The position numbers and the translations under genes are program-made. Positions 4,401 to 12,934 of a DNA stretch of 24,000 nt are shown here, in pieces. Each line of letters starts with the position of its first letter. Within the stretch, counting starts at the first letter, position 1. A model generated the notes under the pieces. It saw only the letters and a list, made by a program, of their open reading frames with translations. It did no database searches and was not told the origin of the DNA. The stretch comes from Candidatus Omnitrophota bacterium (GTDB lineage Bacteria; Hinthialibacterota; Hinthialibacteria; Hinthialibacterales; JAKPRU01). The stretch lies in the NCBI GenBank assembly GCA_029570205.1, contig JAKQSI010000032.1:52585-76584 (forward strand), given 5' to 3'.

Positions 4401-4434
4401 CCTCACCCCGGCCCTCTCCCGGAGGGAGAGGGGG
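4401..4434 (-). repeat. REP-like palindromic element, copy A (inverted orientation)
   Basis: The plus strand reads CCTCACCCCGGCCCTCTCCCGGAGGGAGAGGG. Its reverse complement, CCCTCTCCC-TCC-GGGAGAGGG-CC-GGGGTGAGG, matches copy B at 27 of 32 positions. It forms a perfect 9-bp stem (CCCTCTCCC/GGGAGAGGG) with a 3-nt loop. It sits in the convergent gap between 3923..4375 (+) and 4505..6571 (-). Confidence 0.85.
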
Positions 4435-4504
4435 ATTGGGATTGCTCTTGCAGAATGGGAAGGGACCGACAGGGCTTATAGGACCCATACGATCCATAAA
4501 ATAC

Positions 4505-6571
4505 TCAGAAAAACGCGATCTCCGGTGGGGGCGAGACAGGAGTTCCCGCAAGGTTGAGATGCGCATAAAGCGCCCACGCAAGAGCATAGACCGTATCGTC
4601 ATGCACTGTCCGGGAACCTTCCGGGTGCCCGAACGAGAACCGTCCGGTCGCCTCACGTCGATACTGAAAGGCCTTCAGTTCGGAGATCAGAGTCTCTGAG
4701 ACATCGAGCGGAATCTCGATCTCTTTCCGACGGAACAGGTTATACAGCGTATTGAAAATAATTTGCTGGGTGGCAGCGGTCGGCGCGATCAGTTCCGTTT
4801 GCACCCCCAAAGCGGTCAGGTAGTCCGCAAGGCTTTTGCCCTGGTATTGCTCGACAGCCGCGTGAGCAATGCCGTACCTCTCCACCAGACGCGCGGCCTC
4901 ACGGTGGATTTCATTGGTATCGGCGCGGGTCAGACGGACAACATCGATGACCCGATATCGTAATTGCGTTTCTTCCTCGGATTGCACATAAGGCCACGGA
5001 AGATTCTCCTCGGCTTCCATAGAGACTCCATACCTCGCCAGGACCGCCAACGCCGATGCATCATGGGAATCGTCGTAAGACAGGGCCAGGTCCGCGCCGA
5101 GGGTGGCCATTTCTCCCTCGCCGAGTTGTTGTGCCGCGTGGGGCACAATCATCGGGTCAATCAACCCGGCAAACAGGCTATGGCTACCCTCTACCCACTC
5201 CGCCATCACCTCGGCGCGGAACTCCAGTTCTGTGCGTGACCGTCTCAGCCGTTCGATTTCTTCTTCCCGAATTTCCGGATTGACTGTACTGGGCCATTGA
5301 AAAGAAATGATGTCATCCCTCTTCTCCTGGCCGTCCCGGAATAACGGGTACACCCAGGAATGGACCGAGGACGGAGAAGAGACAATCGCCATCCGCCCCT
5401 GGTCTTTCTCTGTAGTAATCATGGCGTACTCGACAGCGGCGCGGATTTCCTCGCCCTGTTCCATATAACAGGCCTCATCCAGGATTACGGAAAGGCTGCC
5501 GGTCGTCTCATCGGATTTGCACGGATGATACCCGCGAATAGTCGCTGCTTTTGCAGGCAGGAAAATGATTCGAGACTTGTTCCGGAGAGTGATCCGTTCG
5601 GCGCCGGATTCGGTAACAAATTTTTTCAAGTCCGATGAGTCCAGCAGATCGAGCATCCTCTTGCCGAATTCCGAGCACATCCGCACCCCCGAGGACACAA
5701 CCAGCACAGTGTGATTGGATTTACGGCAGGCGGTATAGAGCGCGAATACCCTTGCCGCCATCGATTTGCCCGCGCCGCGACCGGCCATCATGATCACGAC
5801 CCGGTGAGGCGCATTGCAGAACTCCACCTGGTGAGGGTACAGAGTCACCCCAAGGGCCTCACGCGCGAAGGTCGCGGGATCGGCCAACCGACCCAAAGGG
5901 ATGCTATCGGCTTGTTCGTTGATTTTCGACGTCGTATGCTGCTCGATTTCCTTGAGGAGCCGCATCAGGATGGTGGTCTGCTGCGCGCGGGTTTTTCGAA
6001 GCGCATCACGTTCTTTCGGTTCGAGGCCGCCCCAACAGAGTTCCCGGTCGATATCGGCGAGGGTCTGTTCGGTGGCGGCGAACTGTTCAATCAGCGGCAG
6101 TAAGAGCGCGTTGCATCCGGTCATCTGTTCGAGTTCGCGAATGCGGGTTTGCAAGGGTACCTCATGGTCCATTCCACCTTGCTGCGCCGGCGGTTGCAAG
6201 CGAAGCCGGATGAGTCGCTGCCCGCGTTGCAGCCTGTATTCCACAATCCGTTCGCTTGCTTTCAGAATCACGAGTGTGCGGCCGATGGTGCGTCGATCTC
6301 GTTGGATCTCTCTGGCCAGTTCGCGGATATGAAACTGGACCATGCCTATCTCGTCGCAATGGCTGTTCAGCCATCGGCTGACAAGGGTTTCCGTTGTGGG
6401 GGCTTGTTTTGTTCTCACGGAAATCGTTTCTCCTATTATTAGAGGGAATCGGCGCAGAAAGGGGGATTTTGATGCGCGGGTGGCCGGTGTGATGAATCGA
6501 GACGTAGCGGAAGGATGGATACGGGGCGGGGTATTGAAATACAAACCGTCAATGACATTGAATGCCTTCAT
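4505..6571 (-). CDS. Terminase-large-subunit-like ATPase/nuclease with an N-terminal winged-HTH and coiled-coil extension (orphan)
   Basis: This is a 688-aa ORF. Its motifs are Walker A VIMMAGRGAGKSMAA, Walker B LSVILDEACYM, a coupling-motif-like IVSSPSS, and RNaseH-like nuclease acidic motifs LGADLALSYDDSHDASALAV, AAVEQYQGKS and TVHDDTVYALAWALY. This pattern is typical of phage TerL (Terminase_3/6-like). The N-terminal ~230 aa include FHIRELAREIQRDRRTIGRTLVILKASERIVEY (wHTH-like) and a helical segment. A more likely start is the GTG at 6418 (AGGAGA upstream), because the first 51 codons look non-coding. Confidence 0.8.
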   Translation of the reverse strand: MKAFNVIDGLYFNTPPRIHPSATSRFITPATRASKSPFLRRFPLIIGETISVRTKQAPTTETLVSRWLNSHCDEIGMVQFHIRELAREIQRDRRTIGRTLVILKASERIVEYRLQRGQRLIRLRLQPPAQQGGMDHEVPLQTRIRELEQMTGCNALLLPLIEQFAATEQTLADIDRELCWGGLEPKERDALRKTRAQQTTILMRLLKEIEQHTTSKINEQADSIPLGRLADPATFAREALGVTLYPHQVEFCNAPHRVVIMMAGRGAGKSMAARVFALYTACRKSNHTVLVVSSGVRMCSEFGKRMLDLLDSSDLKKFVTESGAERITLRNKSRIIFLPAKAATIRGYHPCKSDETTGSLSVILDEACYMEQGEEIRAAVEYAMITTEKDQGRMAIVSSPSSVHSWVYPLFRDGQEKRDDIISFQWPSTVNPEIREEEIERLRRSRTELEFRAEVMAEWVEGSHSLFAGLIDPMIVPHAAQQLGEGEMATLGADLALSYDDSHDASALAVLARYGVSMEAEENLPWPYVQSEEETQLRYRVIDVVRLTRADTNEIHREAARLVERYGIAHAAVEQYQGKSLADYLTALGVQTELIAPTAATQQIIFNTLYNLFRRKEIEIPLDVSETLISELKAFQYRREATGRFSFGHPEGSRTVHDDTVYALAWALYAHLNLAGTPVSPPPEIAFF

Positions 6572-6690
6572 TTATGGGGTGAAGCAAGCACAACCGAGCA
6601 TTTGAAGAACGGTGGATGGACGCTTCCGGGAAACCATGCAAGAATGAATTGTGTGAAGGGAGTAACCGACAATGAAATGTGAGTATCACA

Positions 6691-7716
6691 ATGCAAAGAA
6701 AGCTTTTTGACGATCCGGTCTGCTCCATTCCGCCGAGAAATGGCGAGACCCGCGAACCTTATGGTCGGATTGATGCTGATCCGGAGACCCATGCCAAATT
6801 ACTGGCCTATTGTCGGTTACGGCCAGGGGAAGTCTGGTTGGATTCGGAGAAAGGGCATCGGGTGGGTGTGCTGGATGCAACGAATGTCGAACATGTCGCA
6901 GGAGTTGTGGGGGAAGATAGACCCGCGCTTTTCGTAAACGATCCGCCTTACAACGTGGCTGTCGGGAATTCGAATACGTGCAATCTTCCAAAGACGGAAC
7001 TATCCGCCTACATGGTTTTTTCGAGAAAATGGGTGGAGAACTGCGCCAGAGTTATGGGCGATAACGCCCACTTTTACGTTTGGCTAGGGGCTGATGTTCG
7101 CGACAATTTCCAGCCTCTGCCGGATTTCATGATTATGATGCGTGATATTCCTCAACTGAAGCCGCGCAACTTTATCACACTGCGCAACCAGAGAGGCTAT
7201 GGAACCCAGAAAAACTGGATGTGGGTGAGACAGGAACTACTTCATTACATCCATGGCGATCCCGATTTCACCGTGCAGTACACCAATATCCCAAAGATCC
7301 TCCGAGGTTACTACAAGAACGTGAACGGCAAGATAACGGAGAACATAGAGCGCAGTAAATCGGGTAATATCCGTCCCGGCAACGTGTGGGTAGATGTGCA
7401 ACAGGTGTTCTATCGTATGGAGGAGAACGTTCCGGGATGTTACGCGCAGAAGCCCCTCAAGGCGATCGAGAGAATTCTGCTGTCAAGCAGCAAGGCCGGC
7501 GATTGTGTCTTGGATTGTTTCTCCCACTCAGGAACCACACTGATCGCAGGAGAGAAACTTGGCCGACGGGTTGTGACCTGCGATATCGATCCTGTATTTG
7601 CCGAACTGACGATCAGGCGGCTTGAGCACTACCGAAAAACCGGAAGAACGGGATGGCAATGGCATAATCCGTTTCCTGAGATGGAGCAAGTCTATGACGC
7701 AGCGGCAACTGCGTGA
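6691..7716 (+). CDS. Beta-class N6-adenine/N4-cytosine DNA methyltransferase (N6_N4_Mtase, PF01555-like)
   Basis: Motif IV (FVNDPPYNV) precedes motif I (VLDCFSHSGTTLIAG), which is the beta-class circular permutation. The flanking residues ALFVNDPPYN and QKPLKAIERILL are typical of the family. I trimmed the ORF from the GTG at 6679 to the first ATG at 6691. Confidence 0.9.
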   Translation: MQRKLFDDPVCSIPPRNGETREPYGRIDADPETHAKLLAYCRLRPGEVWLDSEKGHRVGVLDATNVEHVAGVVGEDRPALFVNDPPYNVAVGNSNTCNLPKTELSAYMVFSRKWVENCARVMGDNAHFYVWLGADVRDNFQPLPDFMIMMRDIPQLKPRNFITLRNQRGYGTQKNWMWVRQELLHYIHGDPDFTVQYTNIPKILRGYYKNVNGKITENIERSKSGNIRPGNVWVDVQQVFYRMEENVPGCYAQKPLKAIERILLSSSKAGDCVLDCFSHSGTTLIAGEKLGRRVVTCDIDPVFAELTIRRLEHYRKTGRTGWQWHNPFPEMEQVYDAAATA

Positions 7717-8413
7717 ATACCTGGACGCATTCATCAGAACACTCGGACAGCAGGACAGAGATTTCCTTGATGCTCGTCTGCAATCCCTCGCTTCCGTATT
7801 CCCGTTCAACGAGTACGAGTATATCCTTATGTTTCTTCGGGATCGGTCGGTGATCTCCTTCCAAGAGTATGAAGATTTGAGGAACAGGTATGTCTCGGCC
7901 AACCGATACTTGAACCTTTTTGGCCTTGCTCCTCGGATATTCGGCCAGATCTGGGGCGAACAGCATCTCAGGGATCTGGATTCGAGGTTCAGGAAAGCGG
8001 ATAAAACTGTCGATACGGATCATGAAGGACAGTATGATCTGTGGATCGAAGGTGTCCGCGTTGAAGTAAAGGCGGCGCGGGCAATCGACACGAAAAAACG
8101 TGGAGACTTGGTTTCTAAGGCCCTGAGAACGGATTCGGAACGCCCATTCTGGATGAATTTCCAGCAGTTGAAATTGGATATCTGTGATGTGTTTGTGTTC
8201 CTGGGTGTGTGGGTGGACGCCATCTGCTATTGGGTGTTGTCCCACAATGATGTGAAGAACAGTCCTTACCTCAGTCACCAGCACAGGGGAGGCATCGAGT
8301 ATCAGATCGGGATCAACCACAAGAACATTTCCGCGTTTGAGAAGTATCTTGTTGACCCCCCTCATGTCGCGGAAAAAGTGATCGCACTTGGCCAGCGGAA
8401 TGGAAGGCGATGA
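7694..8413 (+). CDS. Putative restriction endonuclease (PD-(D/E)XK-like), partner of the upstream methyltransferase
   Basis: I trimmed ORF 7622..8413 to the first ATG at 7694, which has SD GGAG 7 nt upstream. It overlaps the methyltransferase 3' end by 23 nt, consistent with translational coupling. The candidate catalytic motif is GQYDLWIEGVRVEVKAARA (D...E-V-K). No specific family was recognised. Confidence 0.55.
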   Translation: MTQRQLREYLDAFIRTLGQQDRDFLDARLQSLASVFPFNEYEYILMFLRDRSVISFQEYEDLRNRYVSANRYLNLFGLAPRIFGQIWGEQHLRDLDSRFRKADKTVDTDHEGQYDLWIEGVRVEVKAARAIDTKKRGDLVSKALRTDSERPFWMNFQQLKLDICDVFVFLGVWVDAICYWVLSHNDVKNSPYLSHQHRGGIEYQIGINHKNISAFEKYLVDPPHVAEKVIALGQRNGRR

Positions 8414-8443
8414 ACCCTGCGCAACCACAGGGGGATTGCCGCC

Positions 8444-8476
8444 CCCTCTCCCGGCGGGAGAGGGTTGGGGTGAGGG
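8444..8476 (+). repeat. REP-like palindromic element, copy B
   Basis: The sequence is CCCTCTCCC-GGC-GGGAGAGGG-TT-GGGGTGAGGG, with a perfect 9-bp stem. It lies 30 nt downstream of the stop of 7694..8413. Confidence 0.85.
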
Positions 8477-8666
8477 TCTTCTTGCGTTGAATCGGCACTC
8501 TATCGTTGTATGATTCCTGCGGCACCCACAGGCGGATTGCCCCCGCGCAAGAGGGGGATTAATCCGGCATGATTGCCGGACCATAAATCACGGTTAAAAT
8601 GACCGCACCTTGGGCGAGGGAATACGGTGTTGGGAAGGAATTTCTGTTCTGGCTACTCAATCATCG

Positions 8667-9068
8667 ATGAACCAAAGCACAAGGAATGCGATCTTCGCTA
8701 TTGTGATAGTCGTCACAATCGTGGCTGTCCCTTACGGGTGGCTCTTTTTTGGCCCCATACTCAAAGACTATCTACAGCGCACGGAATTCAATTCAGAGAT
8801 CTGGAAAGACACAAAAATAGCACATAAGCCGCCGTACCCTCGTATCAGAATAGTGGATGACCTCCTTCGCCGGAATATGCGGATGGGCATGAACCGGGAG
8901 GAGGTTGTGGTGTTGCCTGGTGAATGCGACCAGAAACGTTATGGGGAGGATTATTTTGTATACTTCCTGGGGCCGGAACGATCTTTAATTCCTCTTGATT
9001 CGGAGCGGCTGATAATGAAATTAGATGCGAACGAGAATGTTTGCGAGGTTTTAATCCGTACTGATTAA
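8667..9068 (+). CDS. Hypothetical membrane-anchored protein (possible SmpA/OmlA/BamE-like fold)
   Basis: I trimmed ORF 8610..9068 (TTG start) to the ATG at 8667. The sequence begins MNQSTRNAIFAIVIVVTIVAVPYGWLFFGPIL (TM helix). The segment GMNREEVVVLPGEC resembles the G-M-T-x-x-x-V-x-x-x-L-G motif of BamE-like domains. No clear SD is present. Confidence 0.45.
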   Translation: MNQSTRNAIFAIVIVVTIVAVPYGWLFFGPILKDYLQRTEFNSEIWKDTKIAHKPPYPRIRIVDDLLRRNMRMGMNREEVVVLPGECDQKRYGEDYFVYFLGPERSLIPLDSERLIMKLDANENVCEVLIRTD

Positions 9069-9107
9069 GCGTCCAGGTTGGGAAAGATGGGCCTGCCGGG
9101 CGCTGAA

Positions 9108-9347
9108 TCACCTCCTCTCGACCAAATGCAGATTTGCCGCGACCGGAATTTCAAACAAGTCCCGGCGCATGAGACGAGAGGAAAAGAACAGGACTTCCAG
9201 GTTCTCGACCTCACCGGTAGTCGGATTCAAACGTGCAATCACATCGTCGTTCAGCTCTTCGGATTCCTGCTCTGGGTATGGGGGAATCTTGTCGATATGA
9301 AGAATGTCGCCTTCTCGGTCATATTTGAATGTCAGTTTCGTGTCCAT
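9108..9347 (-). CDS. DUF2283-family small protein (putative antitoxin partner)
   Basis: I trimmed ORF 9108..9488 to the ATG at 9347 (SD GGAGA). MDTKLTFKYDREGDILHIDKIPP...ARLNPTTGEVENLEVLFFS matches the M-x-x-x-Y-D-x-E-x-D-x-L-x-I plus G-E-I-x-G-I-E-I pattern of DUF2283. It overlaps the upstream gene by 16 nt. Confidence 0.7.
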   Translation of the reverse strand: MDTKLTFKYDREGDILHIDKIPPYPEQESEELNDDVIARLNPTTGEVENLEVLFFSSRLMRRDLFEIPVAANLHLVERR

Positions 9348-9658
9348 TCGGTTTCTCCTGCCGTCAAATTCTGCGTGCGATATGCGGTGACAATCCAATG
9401 CCGAGTTCGTTCCGCCTTCTCCGTGATGACAACGACAACAACGTACTTCCCACCGGGAAGGCTGTCGAACCACCGCGCGAACAGACATGCGTCAGAGCAG
9501 CGTAGACTGCGTCGAACACGGTCGGGATCTTCCAACGTCCCCGCGATGAGTTCATAGCACCTGGGAAGCATATCCGGATGTCTTTCAACAATGTGTTTCA
9601 TCCGTTCATCAGTCAATGCAACTTGACTGCCCAGATATGGACATGACAGAAAAGGCAT
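9332..9658 (-). CDS. Small toxin-like protein (H-I-V-E-R-H-P-D-M family, possible BECR/RelE-like nuclease fold)
   Basis: This 108-aa ORF contains LTDERMKHIVERHPDML...LEDPDRVRRS...GGKYVVVVVITEKAERTRHWIVTAYRT. From memory it matches a widespread small-protein family found next to DUF2283 genes, but I am not certain of the family name. An AAGG SD precedes the ATG at 9658, and the upstream region is AT-rich. Confidence 0.6.
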   Translation of the reverse strand: MPFLSCPYLGSQVALTDERMKHIVERHPDMLPRCYELIAGTLEDPDRVRRSLRCSDACLFARWFDSLPGGKYVVVVVITEKAERTRHWIVTAYRTQNLTAGETEWTRN

Positions 9659-9765
9659 TCTGAACCTTCATTTTATCAATATAGTATATCAGCAAATAGA
9701 CCAGGAGATCGGAAGCGTTTTCTGGAGTACGGTCCGGGGAGGGATACCGTGGTGTTCCGTGCCCC

Positions 9766-10740
9766 CTACTTCTTCAGCTCCTGCATCCTTTCATACATCT
9801 GTCGAAGCGAACCGGCAGCGCGAACATCGCTTCCGGAAATGAGGATTCGATACCCGTCTTTCAACCGTTGCTCGACCGATTTCTCATCCGCCCCGACAAT
9901 CAACGGCACATGGTGCTTCTTGCAGGCTTCGCTGACGGCCTGAAATCCTTCCATCACCTCCGGATGTTTCATATCCCCATCCACGCCGCAGCTGAAACTG
10001 TAATCGTAAAGCCCGAAAAAGATCGCACCGACACCGGGGACAGACAGAATCTCGTCGATGTTCTTCCTGCCCTCTTTGTCTTCAATCATCAGGATTGCCA
10101 GCAGATCGCCGTTCGGGTCCAGCGGCCAGACATCGGCGCGGGACACGTATTCCTCCGAGGTCAATCCCCACAGATAGGCGCACATGTCCGGTGAGGCCCC
10201 CCGTTTGCCTTTCGGCAGAGGCTGCGGATCGCCTTTCGGCTGGGGATACCGGCACGCCGAAATAACCCGCTGTGCGTCCTTCGCATTGGTGCAGTGCGGC
10301 ACAATCACCCCAAACGCCCCGGCATCCAAAACCTGCTTGATATACGGTTCAATCGGACCGGCGGCATCGCACGGAATCCGCACCCACGGCGCAATGCTCG
10401 GCTGCAAACTCCCCGTCTCCAGGACCTCCCGTTTTGAATGAAACGCCATCAGGATCGTCTGCAAGCGCTCGATATCGAACGGCAGATGCTCCATGTCGAT
10501 CAACACATAGTCGATCATCGGGGTCTTGAGGCCGGTATCGCGGTCTACATGCGCATTGGACTCCACCAGCCCGACGGCCGTATAAATCGACATCGACTTA
10601 AACCAGCTTCCCAGTGCGACTTGGTTCCGCTCCAGCTTCACGATTACCTTGTTCAAATGCTCGTCTGCCTGTCCCAGTACCGGGACCGATATTGCGGTCA
10701 GGACTGCCGAAATCACGATATGCATTCTCTGAATCAACAT
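9766..10740 (-). CDS. HpcH/HpaI-family aldolase with an N-terminal signal peptide
   Basis: This is a 324-aa ORF. YVLIDMEHLPFD, VIVPHCTNAKDAQRVISACRYPP-like and LAILMIEDKEGRKNIDEILSVPGVGAIFFGLYDYS match the HpcH/HpaI TIM-barrel aldolase signature. The N-terminus MHIVISAVLTAISVPVLGQADE looks like a cleavable signal peptide. Confidence 0.75.
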   Translation of the reverse strand: MLIQRMHIVISAVLTAISVPVLGQADEHLNKVIVKLERNQVALGSWFKSMSIYTAVGLVESNAHVDRDTGLKTPMIDYVLIDMEHLPFDIERLQTILMAFHSKREVLETGSLQPSIAPWVRIPCDAAGPIEPYIKQVLDAGAFGVIVPHCTNAKDAQRVISACRYPQPKGDPQPLPKGKRGASPDMCAYLWGLTSEEYVSRADVWPLDPNGDLLAILMIEDKEGRKNIDEILSVPGVGAIFFGLYDYSFSCGVDGDMKHPEVMEGFQAVSEACKKHHVPLIVGADEKSVEQRLKDGYRILISGSDVRAAGSLRQMYERMQELKK

Positions 10741-10924
10741 GGGTTCGTATCTGCCTCGTCTTCCTGAGAATCACCCAGTACGATACTTGCATCCACCTTG
10801 ATGCGCACGGTTCATACCGTGCCTACTGCCGTCCGTTCGGTCCATGTCCGTCCTCACTCTGGGTTACAAAACCCGACGATTTGTGAAAAAGTATCGGTAG
10901 TTGGACCGCAGGAGGTTCCTCACA

Positions 10925-12934
10925 ATGCCAGGCAAAGTTTTCTCTCTTCTCATCCTCTTATCCGTCCTGTCCATTCCCATCCGGCCCTTTGCGCAAGATG
11001 AGTTCCCTGTGCCCATTATGATGGCGGAAAAAACCGGCGAGGTCCGCGCCGTTGTTGTTCCCGATGAGGGAATTGCGGGGCAGTACGGAACTTGGACCGT
11101 CACCTGCACCGTCGGCAAGAGCGGCATTCAAACCGGCGGCGGGATTCGGGTGCAACTGCCGGACTCGTTCCACGCCGGGCCGCGCAATTCCGCCAATCCG
11201 CTCCAGGCAACCGATCCTGCAGGGGAACACTATGTCCGTGCTGTATGCTCCTGCCCGGATGTTATCCTGAAAACCACCGTCGAAGCGCAGACGGATGGCT
11301 TGCTTGTGAAGCATTCAAAGGTGTCACTGGATGGGCGTTATGCACGGAATGTTTTTGTGGTTCGCACGATTCTTGAGAAAGGTACGCTTCAGGAAGGCGA
11401 CACCATTTCGGTGATCTATGGCGACCGCTCCAGCGGCGGCGCCGGACTCCCTGCCGGCACTATCTCCTTCCGTCCGAAAACGATTCTGATCGCAGTCGAT
11501 TCAACAGGGAAAAGCCGCTTCCATGAACTGGAAAATCTTCCCACAATTTCCTGCCGACCCGGAGCGGCTGAGCATATCCTGTTTCATTTTCCATCCCAAG
11601 CCGTTGTCGGGCAACCGATACGCGGTCTTATCTCACTGATGGATGGCCGGTTCAACCCGGTGGAACACGTGTCGTTGATCGATTTGTCACAGGGAACCGG
11701 CGAGGCTGATTTTCCAAAACAGGTCTCCGTTCCGCCCAAGACCGGCTACGTCGAATTTGAGATCGTTCCCAAAGCGCCAGGGGTTCTGCGGATCAATGCC
11801 CGCACCGCACGCGAGGAGTTGCTGACGACCTCCAACCCGGTTCGCGTTACCGTTGAGCCGCCGAAACAGAATGTCTATTGGGGAGATATCCACTCCCACA
11901 CTCATTACAGCTGGGATGGTGTCGGCGATGACCAATTTAATTTTGCCCGATATATCACCGGCCTCGATTTCTATGCCATGACCGACCACTCGATGACTCC
12001 CACAGAGCAGGGCTATACACGTGGCCTGAGCGACTACTGTTGGCCGGAATACACCGCGCTCAATGAAAAATTCAATGTCCCCGGCCGGTTCGTGACCATC
12101 CAGGCTTACGAATGTTCGTTCGGCACCCCGTATGGGCATCATAATGTCTATTTCCGGAACAAGCCGGGAGCGTTACTGGACCCGAAGAATTGCACGCTGG
12201 AATCTTTGTGGCAGGCGCTGGAGGCCGGAAATGCGCTGACCATCCCTCACCACACCGGCAAAATGCCGAAAGACATCACCTTCGCAGATAACAACGCCGA
12301 ATTGCGCCGCAATATCGAGATCTATTCGGCGCACGGTCTCAGCGAGGTATACAACCCAAAACACCCGCTGGCTTTCGAGAACAGCCTGTTCACAAGCGAT
12401 TCGCAGAGTGCGCAAGCCGGCTCCTATGTGCAGGATGCCTGGATGAGGGGCCTGATGCTTTCCACGATTGCCTCCTCCGATGACCACCGGGCGCATCCGG
12501 GCCTGCCGCATCACGGACTGGCAGCCGTCCGTGCGACGCAGCTCACGCGCAATGATATTTTTCAGGGTTTGTATGACCGCCACACTTACGGTACAACGGG
12601 CGCGAAGATCATTCTCGATTTCACTCTGAACGGCGTGGAAATGGGTGAAACCGCTGTATTGCAGGGGCCGGCCGTGCTGCGGGTCAACATAACCGGCACG
12701 GACTTGATCGACAACGTGGAGATTCTTCGGTATGACCCGATACAAGGCGCCCCGTTCTTCAATGTCATTCATACCTGGAGACCGGATACCACGGAGTTTG
12801 AGAGCGAATATACCGATCCCAACGGGAAACCGGGCGCGATTTACTATGTCCGGGTGACCCAGAAGCACAAAATCCTGGACCGCTGCGTTATGGCCTGGTC
12901 CTCTCCGATCTGGAGCAAAGCGCGGGAGAAATGA
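10925..12934 (+). CDS. DUF3604-family (PHP-like) metal-dependent hydrolase, exported
   Basis: I trimmed ORF 10901..12934 to the ATG at 10925, which has SD GGAGG 9 nt upstream. The signal peptide is MPGKVFSLLILLSVLSIPIRPFAQ. The metal-binding motifs are VYWGDIHSHTHYSWDG, DFYAMTDHS, YGHHNVYF, TIPHHTG and SSDDHRAHPG. Confidence 0.75.
   Translation: MPGKVFSLLILLSVLSIPIRPFAQDEFPVPIMMAEKTGEVRAVVVPDEGIAGQYGTWTVTCTVGKSGIQTGGGIRVQLPDSFHAGPRNSANPLQATDPAGEHYVRAVCSCPDVILKTTVEAQTDGLLVKHSKVSLDGRYARNVFVVRTILEKGTLQEGDTISVIYGDRSSGGAGLPAGTISFRPKTILIAVDSTGKSRFHELENLPTISCRPGAAEHILFHFPSQAVVGQPIRGLISLMDGRFNPVEHVSLIDLSQGTGEADFPKQVSVPPKTGYVEFEIVPKAPGVLRINARTAREELLTTSNPVRVTVEPPKQNVYWGDIHSHTHYSWDGVGDDQFNFARYITGLDFYAMTDHSMTPTEQGYTRGLSDYCWPEYTALNEKFNVPGRFVTIQAYECSFGTPYGHHNVYFRNKPGALLDPKNCTLESLWQALEAGNALTIPHHTGKMPKDITFADNNAELRRNIEIYSAHGLSEVYNPKHPLAFENSLFTSDSQSAQAGSYVQDAWMRGLMLSTIASSDDHRAHPGLPHHGLAAVRATQLTRNDIFQGLYDRHTYGTTGAKIILDFTLNGVEMGETAVLQGPAVLRVNITGTDLIDNVEILRYDPIQGAPFFNVIHTWRPDTTEFESEYTDPNGKPGAIYYVRVTQKHKILDRCVMAWSSPIWSKAREK

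Follow-up and report, generated by a model that had tools for sequence, protein, structure and literature searches.

The two best-described counterparts of the genes analysed here are the large subunit of phage terminase (TerL), the motor that packages phage DNA, and the type II restriction-modification system, in which a PF01555 methyltransferase is paired with a PD-(D/E)XK endonuclease. We examined a 24-kb stretch of contig JAKQSI010000032.1 from a Candidatus Omnitrophota bacterium (referred to below, at its full length, as the window), where a TerL-like gene on the minus strand is followed, in divergent orientation, by the genes of a DNA methyltransferase and a nuclease. An earlier interpretation of the letters alone (hereafter the sequence-only reading) had placed these open reading frames (ORFs) at 4505..6571, 6691..7716 and 7694..8413 and joined them into a single functional cassette, with a minimal prophage or satellite remnant as the fallback. 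All three ORFs, re-examined at these coordinates, are present, but the region is highly likely to consist of two independent units side by side, a type II restriction-modification pair and a lone terminase gene.

The lone gene shares with the large terminases of phages P74-26, G20c and D6E and with gp17 of phage T4 the two-domain fold, a Walker A motif containing an arginine, the Walker B motif (DE), a candidate arginine finger and the acidic nuclease residues. Unlike them, it is just 22–29% identical to any phage terminase, has no small terminase, portal or capsid gene nearby and is always found among cellular genes. It also adds a helical hairpin, and in the subclade of the window a winged helix, and is a vertically inherited gene under purifying selection with a conserved upstream motif of its own. 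The small terminases of SaPI/PICI and the gene transfer agents are likewise cases of a terminase component carried by a host chromosome outside a complete phage; however, those of phage satellites and gene transfer agents are clustered with integrase, regulatory or capsid genes, whereas here there is one gene with no conserved partner. Type I, type III and McrBC systems (ATP-dependent restriction) resemble the locus in that a translocase-nuclease adjoins a modification enzyme, which is the case in this one genome, but no other genome shows the components linked, and the restriction-modification pair does not need the terminase to be complete. The pair itself fits the models of type II systems, has a 23-nt gene overlap and travels between unrelated genomes, and we found nothing unusual in it that would set it apart from them.

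The TerL-like ORF is open for 688 aa, up to an ATG at 6571. Its true start is probably the GTG at 6418, which would yield a product of 637 aa (4505..6418, minus strand), because homologues begin there, an AGGAG sequence is found 12 nt upstream and the ATG at 6571 is not shared by close relatives, whose DNA homology with the window already ends at 6470. Thus, the ORF given in the sequence-only reading stands, whereas its start probably does not; residue numbers below refer to the 637-aa form. The ORF matches the Pfam family Terminase_6N (45.1 bits, cut-off 22) and the PHROG family phrog_2, terminase large subunit (E = 2.4e-35), and the PF03237 match in Pfam spans residues 260–469 of the 688-aa ORF. 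In phmmer searches its C-terminal part aligns with the solved nuclease domain of the large terminase of Thermus phage G20c (5m1f), HDD motif included, and also matches the nuclease domain of P74-26. An AlphaFold2 model built on 40 homologues (mean pLDDT 85) retrieved in Foldseek the large terminases of phages D6E, T4, Sf6 and HK97 (best E = 1.8e-17, with D6E, 5oeb), and the two-domain terminase fold is predicted to be present overall.

Both catalytic domains appear complete. The ATPase domain (residues 195–405; 5204..5836, minus strand) is supported by the PF03237 match, by invariant columns and by Foldseek alignments to the ATPase domains of P74-26 and T4, and the RNase H-like nuclease domain (residues 437–621; 4556..5110, minus strand) by the phmmer matches to G20c and P74-26 and by Foldseek matches to 5m1f and 5tge. 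Among 40 homologues with 38–91% identity, invariant positions include the Walker A motif AGRGAGKS with K218 (5762–5785), the Walker B motif LDEAC with D314 and E315 (5474–5479) and the nuclease residues D443 (5090–5092) and H606-D607-D608 (4595–4603). R246, also invariant among homologues, is a candidate arginine finger. The claim of a TerL-like protein with intact Walker A/B and RNaseH-type acidic motifs is therefore borne out by Pfam, PHROG, the fold and the invariant residues. Long antisense ORFs run across the whole terminase gene at two other loci (552 aa at L015 9845–11503 and 651 aa at L022 6230–8185), and the same antisense frame in the window contains only ∼5 stops; we attribute these ORFs to codon usage, of which they would be a by-product.

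The N-terminal part distinguishes the protein from ordinary phage large terminases. The helix-turn-helix (HTH) proposed in the sequence-only reading is recovered as a predicted winged-helix DNA-binding domain at residues 9–72 (6203..6394, minus strand), which AlphaFold2 models in the order H-E-H-H-E-E with pLDDT ∼90 and to which Foldseek also points. This domain is restricted to the subclade of the window (P0002–P0006) and is absent from homologues of 525–545 aa. It is followed by a helical hairpin or coiled-coil region at residues 89–170 (5909..6154, minus strand), predicted from the AlphaFold2 model and the homologue alignment. An N-terminal helical extension is found in every member of the lone-gene family and is missing from ordinary phage large terminases, which in our profile search match only from about profile position 80 and therefore lack it. 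Modelled alone (pLDDT 80), the N-terminal 195 residues gave weak Foldseek matches to the winged helices of MarR, Z-alpha and Rep proteins in the PDB, where only generic winged-helix proteins were retrieved and none below E = 0.01; in BFVD, a library of viral structures, the model weakly resembles phage replisome-organiser, replication-initiator and HTH proteins. A fusion of a small to a large terminase was considered but is not supported, as the N-terminal region matched no small terminase in these searches. The terminase derivative has thus retained a complete ATPase and a complete RNase H-like nuclease, the helical hairpin having been gained by the family and the winged helix by the subclade.

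A word-indexed search returned 45 clusters of the TerL-like protein, and a scan of one genome per species (185,579 species) returned 14 loci in 13 genomes, to which a metagenome scan added three further usable loci. Two of the clusters are named Candidatus Hinthialibacter and several of the genomes, including SURF_12 (L021), are labelled Omnitrophota. The lineage OLB16, which includes SURF_12 and was formerly placed within Omnitrophota, is now Hinthialibacterota (PMC9324843), and the named members of the family are Hinthialibacterota (OLB16). The family is sharply delimited: when 1.84 billion representative proteins were searched with the family profile, its members scored at least 700 bits and the next protein 361 bits, with the continuum of terminases below ∼280 bits. 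No family member was found in IMG/VR, where the best match is 22–28% identical, and the closest terminases of cultured phages are just 24–29% identical. The nearest outgroup, P0168, is encoded in a phage-like contig along with a serine recombinase, an excisionase-type HTH protein and a small ORF that overlaps the terminase start. The next terminase-like proteins (P0169, P0171, P0173 and P0174; 485–491 aa, ∼250–280 bits) lack the Walker A lysine (e.g. KGRGAGGS, KGRQAGGT), and their ATPase may be inactive. A search of the literature on lone or exapted terminases found nothing relevant.

Analysis of the gene neighbourhoods showed that the terminase gene stands alone in every context examined. In ten contexts annotated with Pfam (the window, L001, L005, L006, L007, L008, L029, L030, L043 and L044) it is surrounded only by cellular housekeeping genes; the neighbours include MnmG, PurF, asparagine synthase, a TonB-ExbD set, UvrB, G6PD, Obg, sulfatases and oxidoreductases. 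Neither the window nor the nine other annotated contexts contains a small terminase, portal or capsid gene, and the 24-kb window also has no tail, integrase or lysis gene, which confirms what the sequence-only reading had noted for the vicinity of the gene. All ORFs of 60 aa or more from 16 distinct loci and the window were compared with one another, as were, in a second comparison, the ORFs of 30 aa or more that flank the terminase gene at a distance of up to 800 nt; neither comparison revealed a conserved neighbour beyond close relatives. Among the latter, the order of the terminase gene, a small neighbour (p164) and ftsH is kept at 93% and at 78% nucleotide identity, a GDSL lipase gene lies upstream of the terminase gene in both L005 and L030, and a GFO/IDH/MocA oxidoreductase gene does so in both L007 and L043. 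The gene therefore proved to be an orphan, as had been suggested, with relatives that were never seen in head-morphogenesis modules and are lone in all ten annotated contexts.

Among close relatives, the ratio of non-synonymous to synonymous substitution rates (dN/dS) is 0.10–0.23 for the TerL-like gene, 0.08 for ftsH and 0.14–0.20 for p164. The dS values of the three genes are 0.77, 0.96 and 0.50, respectively, between the window and L001, and 0.17, 0.26 and 0.16 between the window and L011; because these values are similar, the terminase gene has diverged in step with its neighbours. The lone terminase gene is vertically inherited and under purifying selection. These data are hard to reconcile with the fallback of the sequence-only reading, according to which the terminase gene would be all that remains of a decayed prophage or phage satellite, without present function. 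A large terminase is, to be sure, a phage hallmark gene, the nearest outgroup sits in a phage-like contig, and in the window strain foreign DNA has been inserted on both sides of the gene. However, such a remnant should not show the observed dN/dS with a dS similar to that of ftsH, an intact reading frame and catalytic motifs that are all invariant down to 38% identity, nor should independent decay have left the same single gene ∼16 times, in every context alone, with no phage genes nearby and with family-specific N-terminal additions and an upstream motif. The remnant explanation is not supported and we regard it as very unlikely.

Vertical inheritance, purifying selection and intact packaging motifs would also fit a working packaging enzyme, and gene transfer agents may have their genes distributed over several loci. 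The lone gene might accordingly supply the terminase to a domesticated particle system, gene-transfer-agent-like or of another kind, whose capsid, portal and tail genes are dispersed over other loci. In the ten annotated contexts, the local surroundings that the search covered, there is no structural gene within ∼10 kb of the terminase gene; the small terminase, too, is missing from these contexts, and the N-terminal additions specific to the family suggest an altered mode of action. On balance, a dispersed particle system appears quite unlikely.

The second unit is the restriction-modification pair. The methyltransferase gene (6691..7716, plus strand, with an alternative GTG start at 6679) encodes a predicted beta-class N6/N4 DNA methyltransferase of a type II pair, which matches PF01555 (E = 2e-24) and the PADLOC model MTase_II (E = 3.5e-27). 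Its DPPY motif precedes the FxGxG-like motif for S-adenosylmethionine (AdoMet) binding (DCFSHSGTT in the translation), the order characteristic of the beta class to which it had been assigned before. Since the enzyme carries DPPY, its product is expected to be N6-methyladenine (m6A), probably. The nuclease gene (7694..8413, plus strand) overlaps the methyltransferase gene by 23 nt and encodes a 239-aa protein that matches the PADLOC model REase_II PDLC03414 (E = 3.7e-45), with D115 and E124-x-K126 invariant in 18 homologues, which corresponds to a PD-(D/E)XK site; the earlier prediction of an overlapping PD-(D/E)XK nuclease is thereby upheld and the protein can be assigned as a type II restriction endonuclease. 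Searches against PDB sequences and plasmids gave no match to the nuclease. It has more than 1000 homologues, mostly of ∼238 aa, of which the best 120 are 64–91% identical; the few named ones are from Phycisphaerae and Parcubacteria. The methyltransferase gene lies immediately upstream of the nuclease gene in L024, L026, L027 and L028, in L026 likewise with an overlap of 23 nt; these four loci have no terminase and their neighbours are unrelated housekeeping genes. The proteins of L024, L026 and L027 are 72–79% (methyltransferase) and 75–85% (nuclease) identical to those of the window. Two loci of nuclease homologues that we inspected have a PF01555 methyltransferase gene directly upstream, unrelated housekeeping neighbours and no terminase. 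Because the homologues of both proteins sit together in unrelated genomes, the pair moves as a unit. G+C content is 0.51–0.52 over the stretch occupied by the pair, compared with 0.55–0.57 on either side. Judged by its genes, the pair is an ordinary, autonomous, horizontally acquired type II system.

Within the same low-G+C stretch (∼6.5–9.7 kb) lie two overlapping ORFs on the minus strand (9108–9658), which encode a DUF2283 protein (126 aa) and a protein with a PBECR2 nuclease fold (108 aa) and resemble a toxin-antitoxin pair.

Nothing links the two units outside the window. A tblastn search with the methyltransferase and the nuclease against all fetched terminase loci found neither of them, and hence no co-occurrence of the two beside TerL homologues. 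In L029 (93% DNA identity) the order of the terminase gene, p164 and ftsH is kept, and homology with the window ends at 6470, i.e. 52 bp upstream of the terminase start, beyond which L029 has a gamma-glutamyltranspeptidase gene. The same break is seen in L001 (78% DNA identity), where the upstream gene codes for spermine synthase. The sequence-only reading had combined the terminase, the methyltransferase and the nuclease into one system for defence or packaging interference that would depend on modification and use the packaging motor as the ATP-dependent translocase of a restriction-like complex. Such a system would be in keeping with the adjacency and divergent orientation of the genes, with an intergenic distance of ∼270 bp, and with the presence of other defence-type genes in the region (the DUF2283/PBECR2 pair). 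It is contradicted by the lack of co-occurrence in any terminase locus examined, by the absence of the pair at this position in the 93%- and 78%-identical relatives with a break so close to the terminase start, by the different G+C content of the two parts and by the pair itself, which fits the model of an ordinary type II restriction enzyme and is intact elsewhere without the terminase. The three-gene cassette thus finds no conserved linkage, and we consider it extremely improbable.

The break at 6470 coincides with the border of a sequence motif. Divergent family members share, upstream of the terminase gene, the motif AATCCCC-N4-8-TGCG-N16-18-TAGRRG, which in the window occupies 6430..6468 on the minus strand. 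Its TGCG...TAGRRG part has 30 matches in 645 kb, both strands counted. Of the 18 loci to which a start was assigned, 11 have it no more than 65 nt upstream of that start; L040 has one more copy upstream of the terminase gene. The motif looks like a promoter or operator because the spacing of 16–18 nt is fixed. An RNA hairpin was rejected as an explanation: palindromic arms occur at single loci in differing registers, and RNAalifold found no consensus structure for 14 sequences.

Blocks of homology start exactly at this motif in three independent comparisons, namely the window versus L029 and L001, L017 versus L018, and L015 versus L022. L017 and L018, which are different contigs of one long-read metagenome-assembled genome (SBF912LR0HQ0026), carry copies (both at 9746–11449) with 97.8% identity across 1704 bp. 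The shared segment extends from the AATCCCC motif as far as 8 nt beyond the stop codon; both copies are intergenic and their flanks are unrelated. Between L015 and L022 the terminase unit is flipped relative to a shared flank. In L008, a second copy of the leader and promoter (5976–6093 versus 9881–9999, 97.5% identical) is located 3.9 kb upstream of the terminase gene; its similarity breaks off 1 nt short of the ATG position, and unrelated genes follow. In rearrangements, then, promoter and ORF behave together as one discrete module.

Such behaviour raises the question of whether the unit is a selfish single-gene mobile element moved by its own nuclease-ATPase, in a transposase-like or homing-like manner or by cutting its own upstream site. 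The two nearly identical copies in one genome, the recurring start of homology at the motif, the inversion between L015 and L022, the second leader copy in L008 and the local repeats beside the unit in L006, L015 and L022 are all compatible with this idea. However, we identified neither terminal inverted repeats nor a target-site duplication, and no right end is conserved; a single copy is present in 12 of the 13 genomes, only one having two; and synteny and matching dS values indicate long vertical descent. Terminase nucleases are known to hydrolyse DNA and are not known to catalyse strand transfer, which also speaks against transposition, and the REP-like repeats are generally plentiful in these genomes. 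A selfish element is, in our opinion, unlikely.

The best explanation of the locus, in our view, begins with a horizontally acquired type II restriction-modification module (6471 to ∼8475), which would have been inserted just upstream of the promoter of the lone terminase gene. Its methyltransferase would protect a specific site and its PD-(D/E)XK endonuclease would cut unmodified DNA, the 23-nt overlap coupling the translation of the two. The other unit (4505–6470) would be a self-contained promoter-plus-ORF module for the derivative of the terminase large subunit. Our best guess is that the lone terminase has been exapted as a DNA translocase-nuclease able to act without a portal. It would work without a procapsid: the winged helix may target DNA, the helical region may drive self-assembly in place of the small terminase and the portal, and the ATPase would translocate double-stranded DNA for the nuclease to cut. 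The most likely target would be foreign or replicating phage DNA, or else the enzyme might interfere with packaging by an infecting phage. In its full form, the proposal is that a viral hallmark gene has become a stand-alone, vertically inherited cellular gene in the lineage to which the named Hinthialibacterota belong. Its product, fitted with DNA-binding and oligomerisation domains, would be a translocase-nuclease that works without a capsid, and promoter and ORF would form a discrete module with boundaries that recur at rearrangement breakpoints, possibly through self-cleavage at the upstream site; we put this forward tentatively, as a possibility with somewhat less than an even chance.

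Several points weigh against this account of the locus. Portal-free activity, self-assembly and an anti-phage role are steps that we infer. No PADLOC model matches the TerL-like protein at E up to 0.01 and the terminase neighbourhoods are not defence islands. Small terminases are absent from the structural matches of the N-terminal region in the PDB and BFVD, and the genomes could have structural genes at other sites, as a dispersed system similar to a gene transfer agent would. The sharp recurring boundaries and the two copies in one genome hint at mobility rather than simple domestication. In addition, all family members come from metagenome assemblies.

A G+C-rich REP-like hairpin (CCTCACCCC..CCCTCTCCCGGAGGGAGAGGG) at 4401..4434, in the gap where p164 and the terminase gene converge, is probably a terminator or a repeat element, and an inverted copy at 8442..8475, just past the stop codon of the restriction enzyme gene, is 88% identical to it over 34 nt. 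The same element (CCTCACCCC..CCCTCTCCCGNNGGGAGAGGG) is found at L001 13117–13151, at L022 12062–12103 and 15266–15305 and inside the 362-bp repeats of L015, i.e. at intergenic, terminator-like sites across related genomes. The two hairpins of the window were therefore rejected as ends of a cassette, given their terminator positions and the occurrence of the element elsewhere in related genomes. The apparent clustering of GGGGGATT, with four copies in the window, all on the plus strand at 4430–8560, was also dismissed, as 8 of 100 shuffles reach this count; two of the four copies are supplied by a direct repeat of ∼35 nt (CCTGCGSCACCCACAGGSGGATTGCC) downstream of the restriction enzyme gene (8417–8448 and 8517–8560). 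Tandem repeats upstream of the terminase gene do not qualify as a family feature, being present in L008, L015 and L006 and absent from the window, L001, L017 and L018. They include a 23-bp unit in 11.5 copies beside the terminase gene in L008 (9596–9960) and a 362-bp unit in more than two copies upstream of the gene in L015 (8544–9811), with a partial copy downstream (11611–11789); in L006 a 111-bp inverted pair (9067–9833 and 11603–12236) flanks the gene.

Just downstream of ftsH, two overlapping ORFs on the minus strand (720–1735), one of 232 aa (1037–1735) and one of 146 aa, have no match in Pfam, NCBIfam, PADLOC, PHROG, the PDB or plasmids. L011, a relative with 93% identity, loses its homology to the window at position 1695 and continues with folP. 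This segment looks like a second strain-specific insertion, and its two ORFs are possibly one frameshifted gene. The remaining genes of the window encode FtsH, an HpcH-family aldolase, a metallohydrolase, ABC transporters, radical-SAM enzymes, lipoyl synthase and similar proteins; no tRNA gene and no Rfam match were found in the 24 kb.

The interesting part of this locus is the family of lone terminases, the restriction-modification pair being routine. In these genomes, a terminase match alone does not mark a prophage. The family is intact, selected, syntenic among relatives and restricted to a single lineage, and it has no phage partners. If the exaptation is true, cells would here have recruited a packaging motor, which is rare, and the lone terminase would represent a new kind of ATP-driven nuclease, with phage defence, DNA processing and gene mobility as candidate roles.

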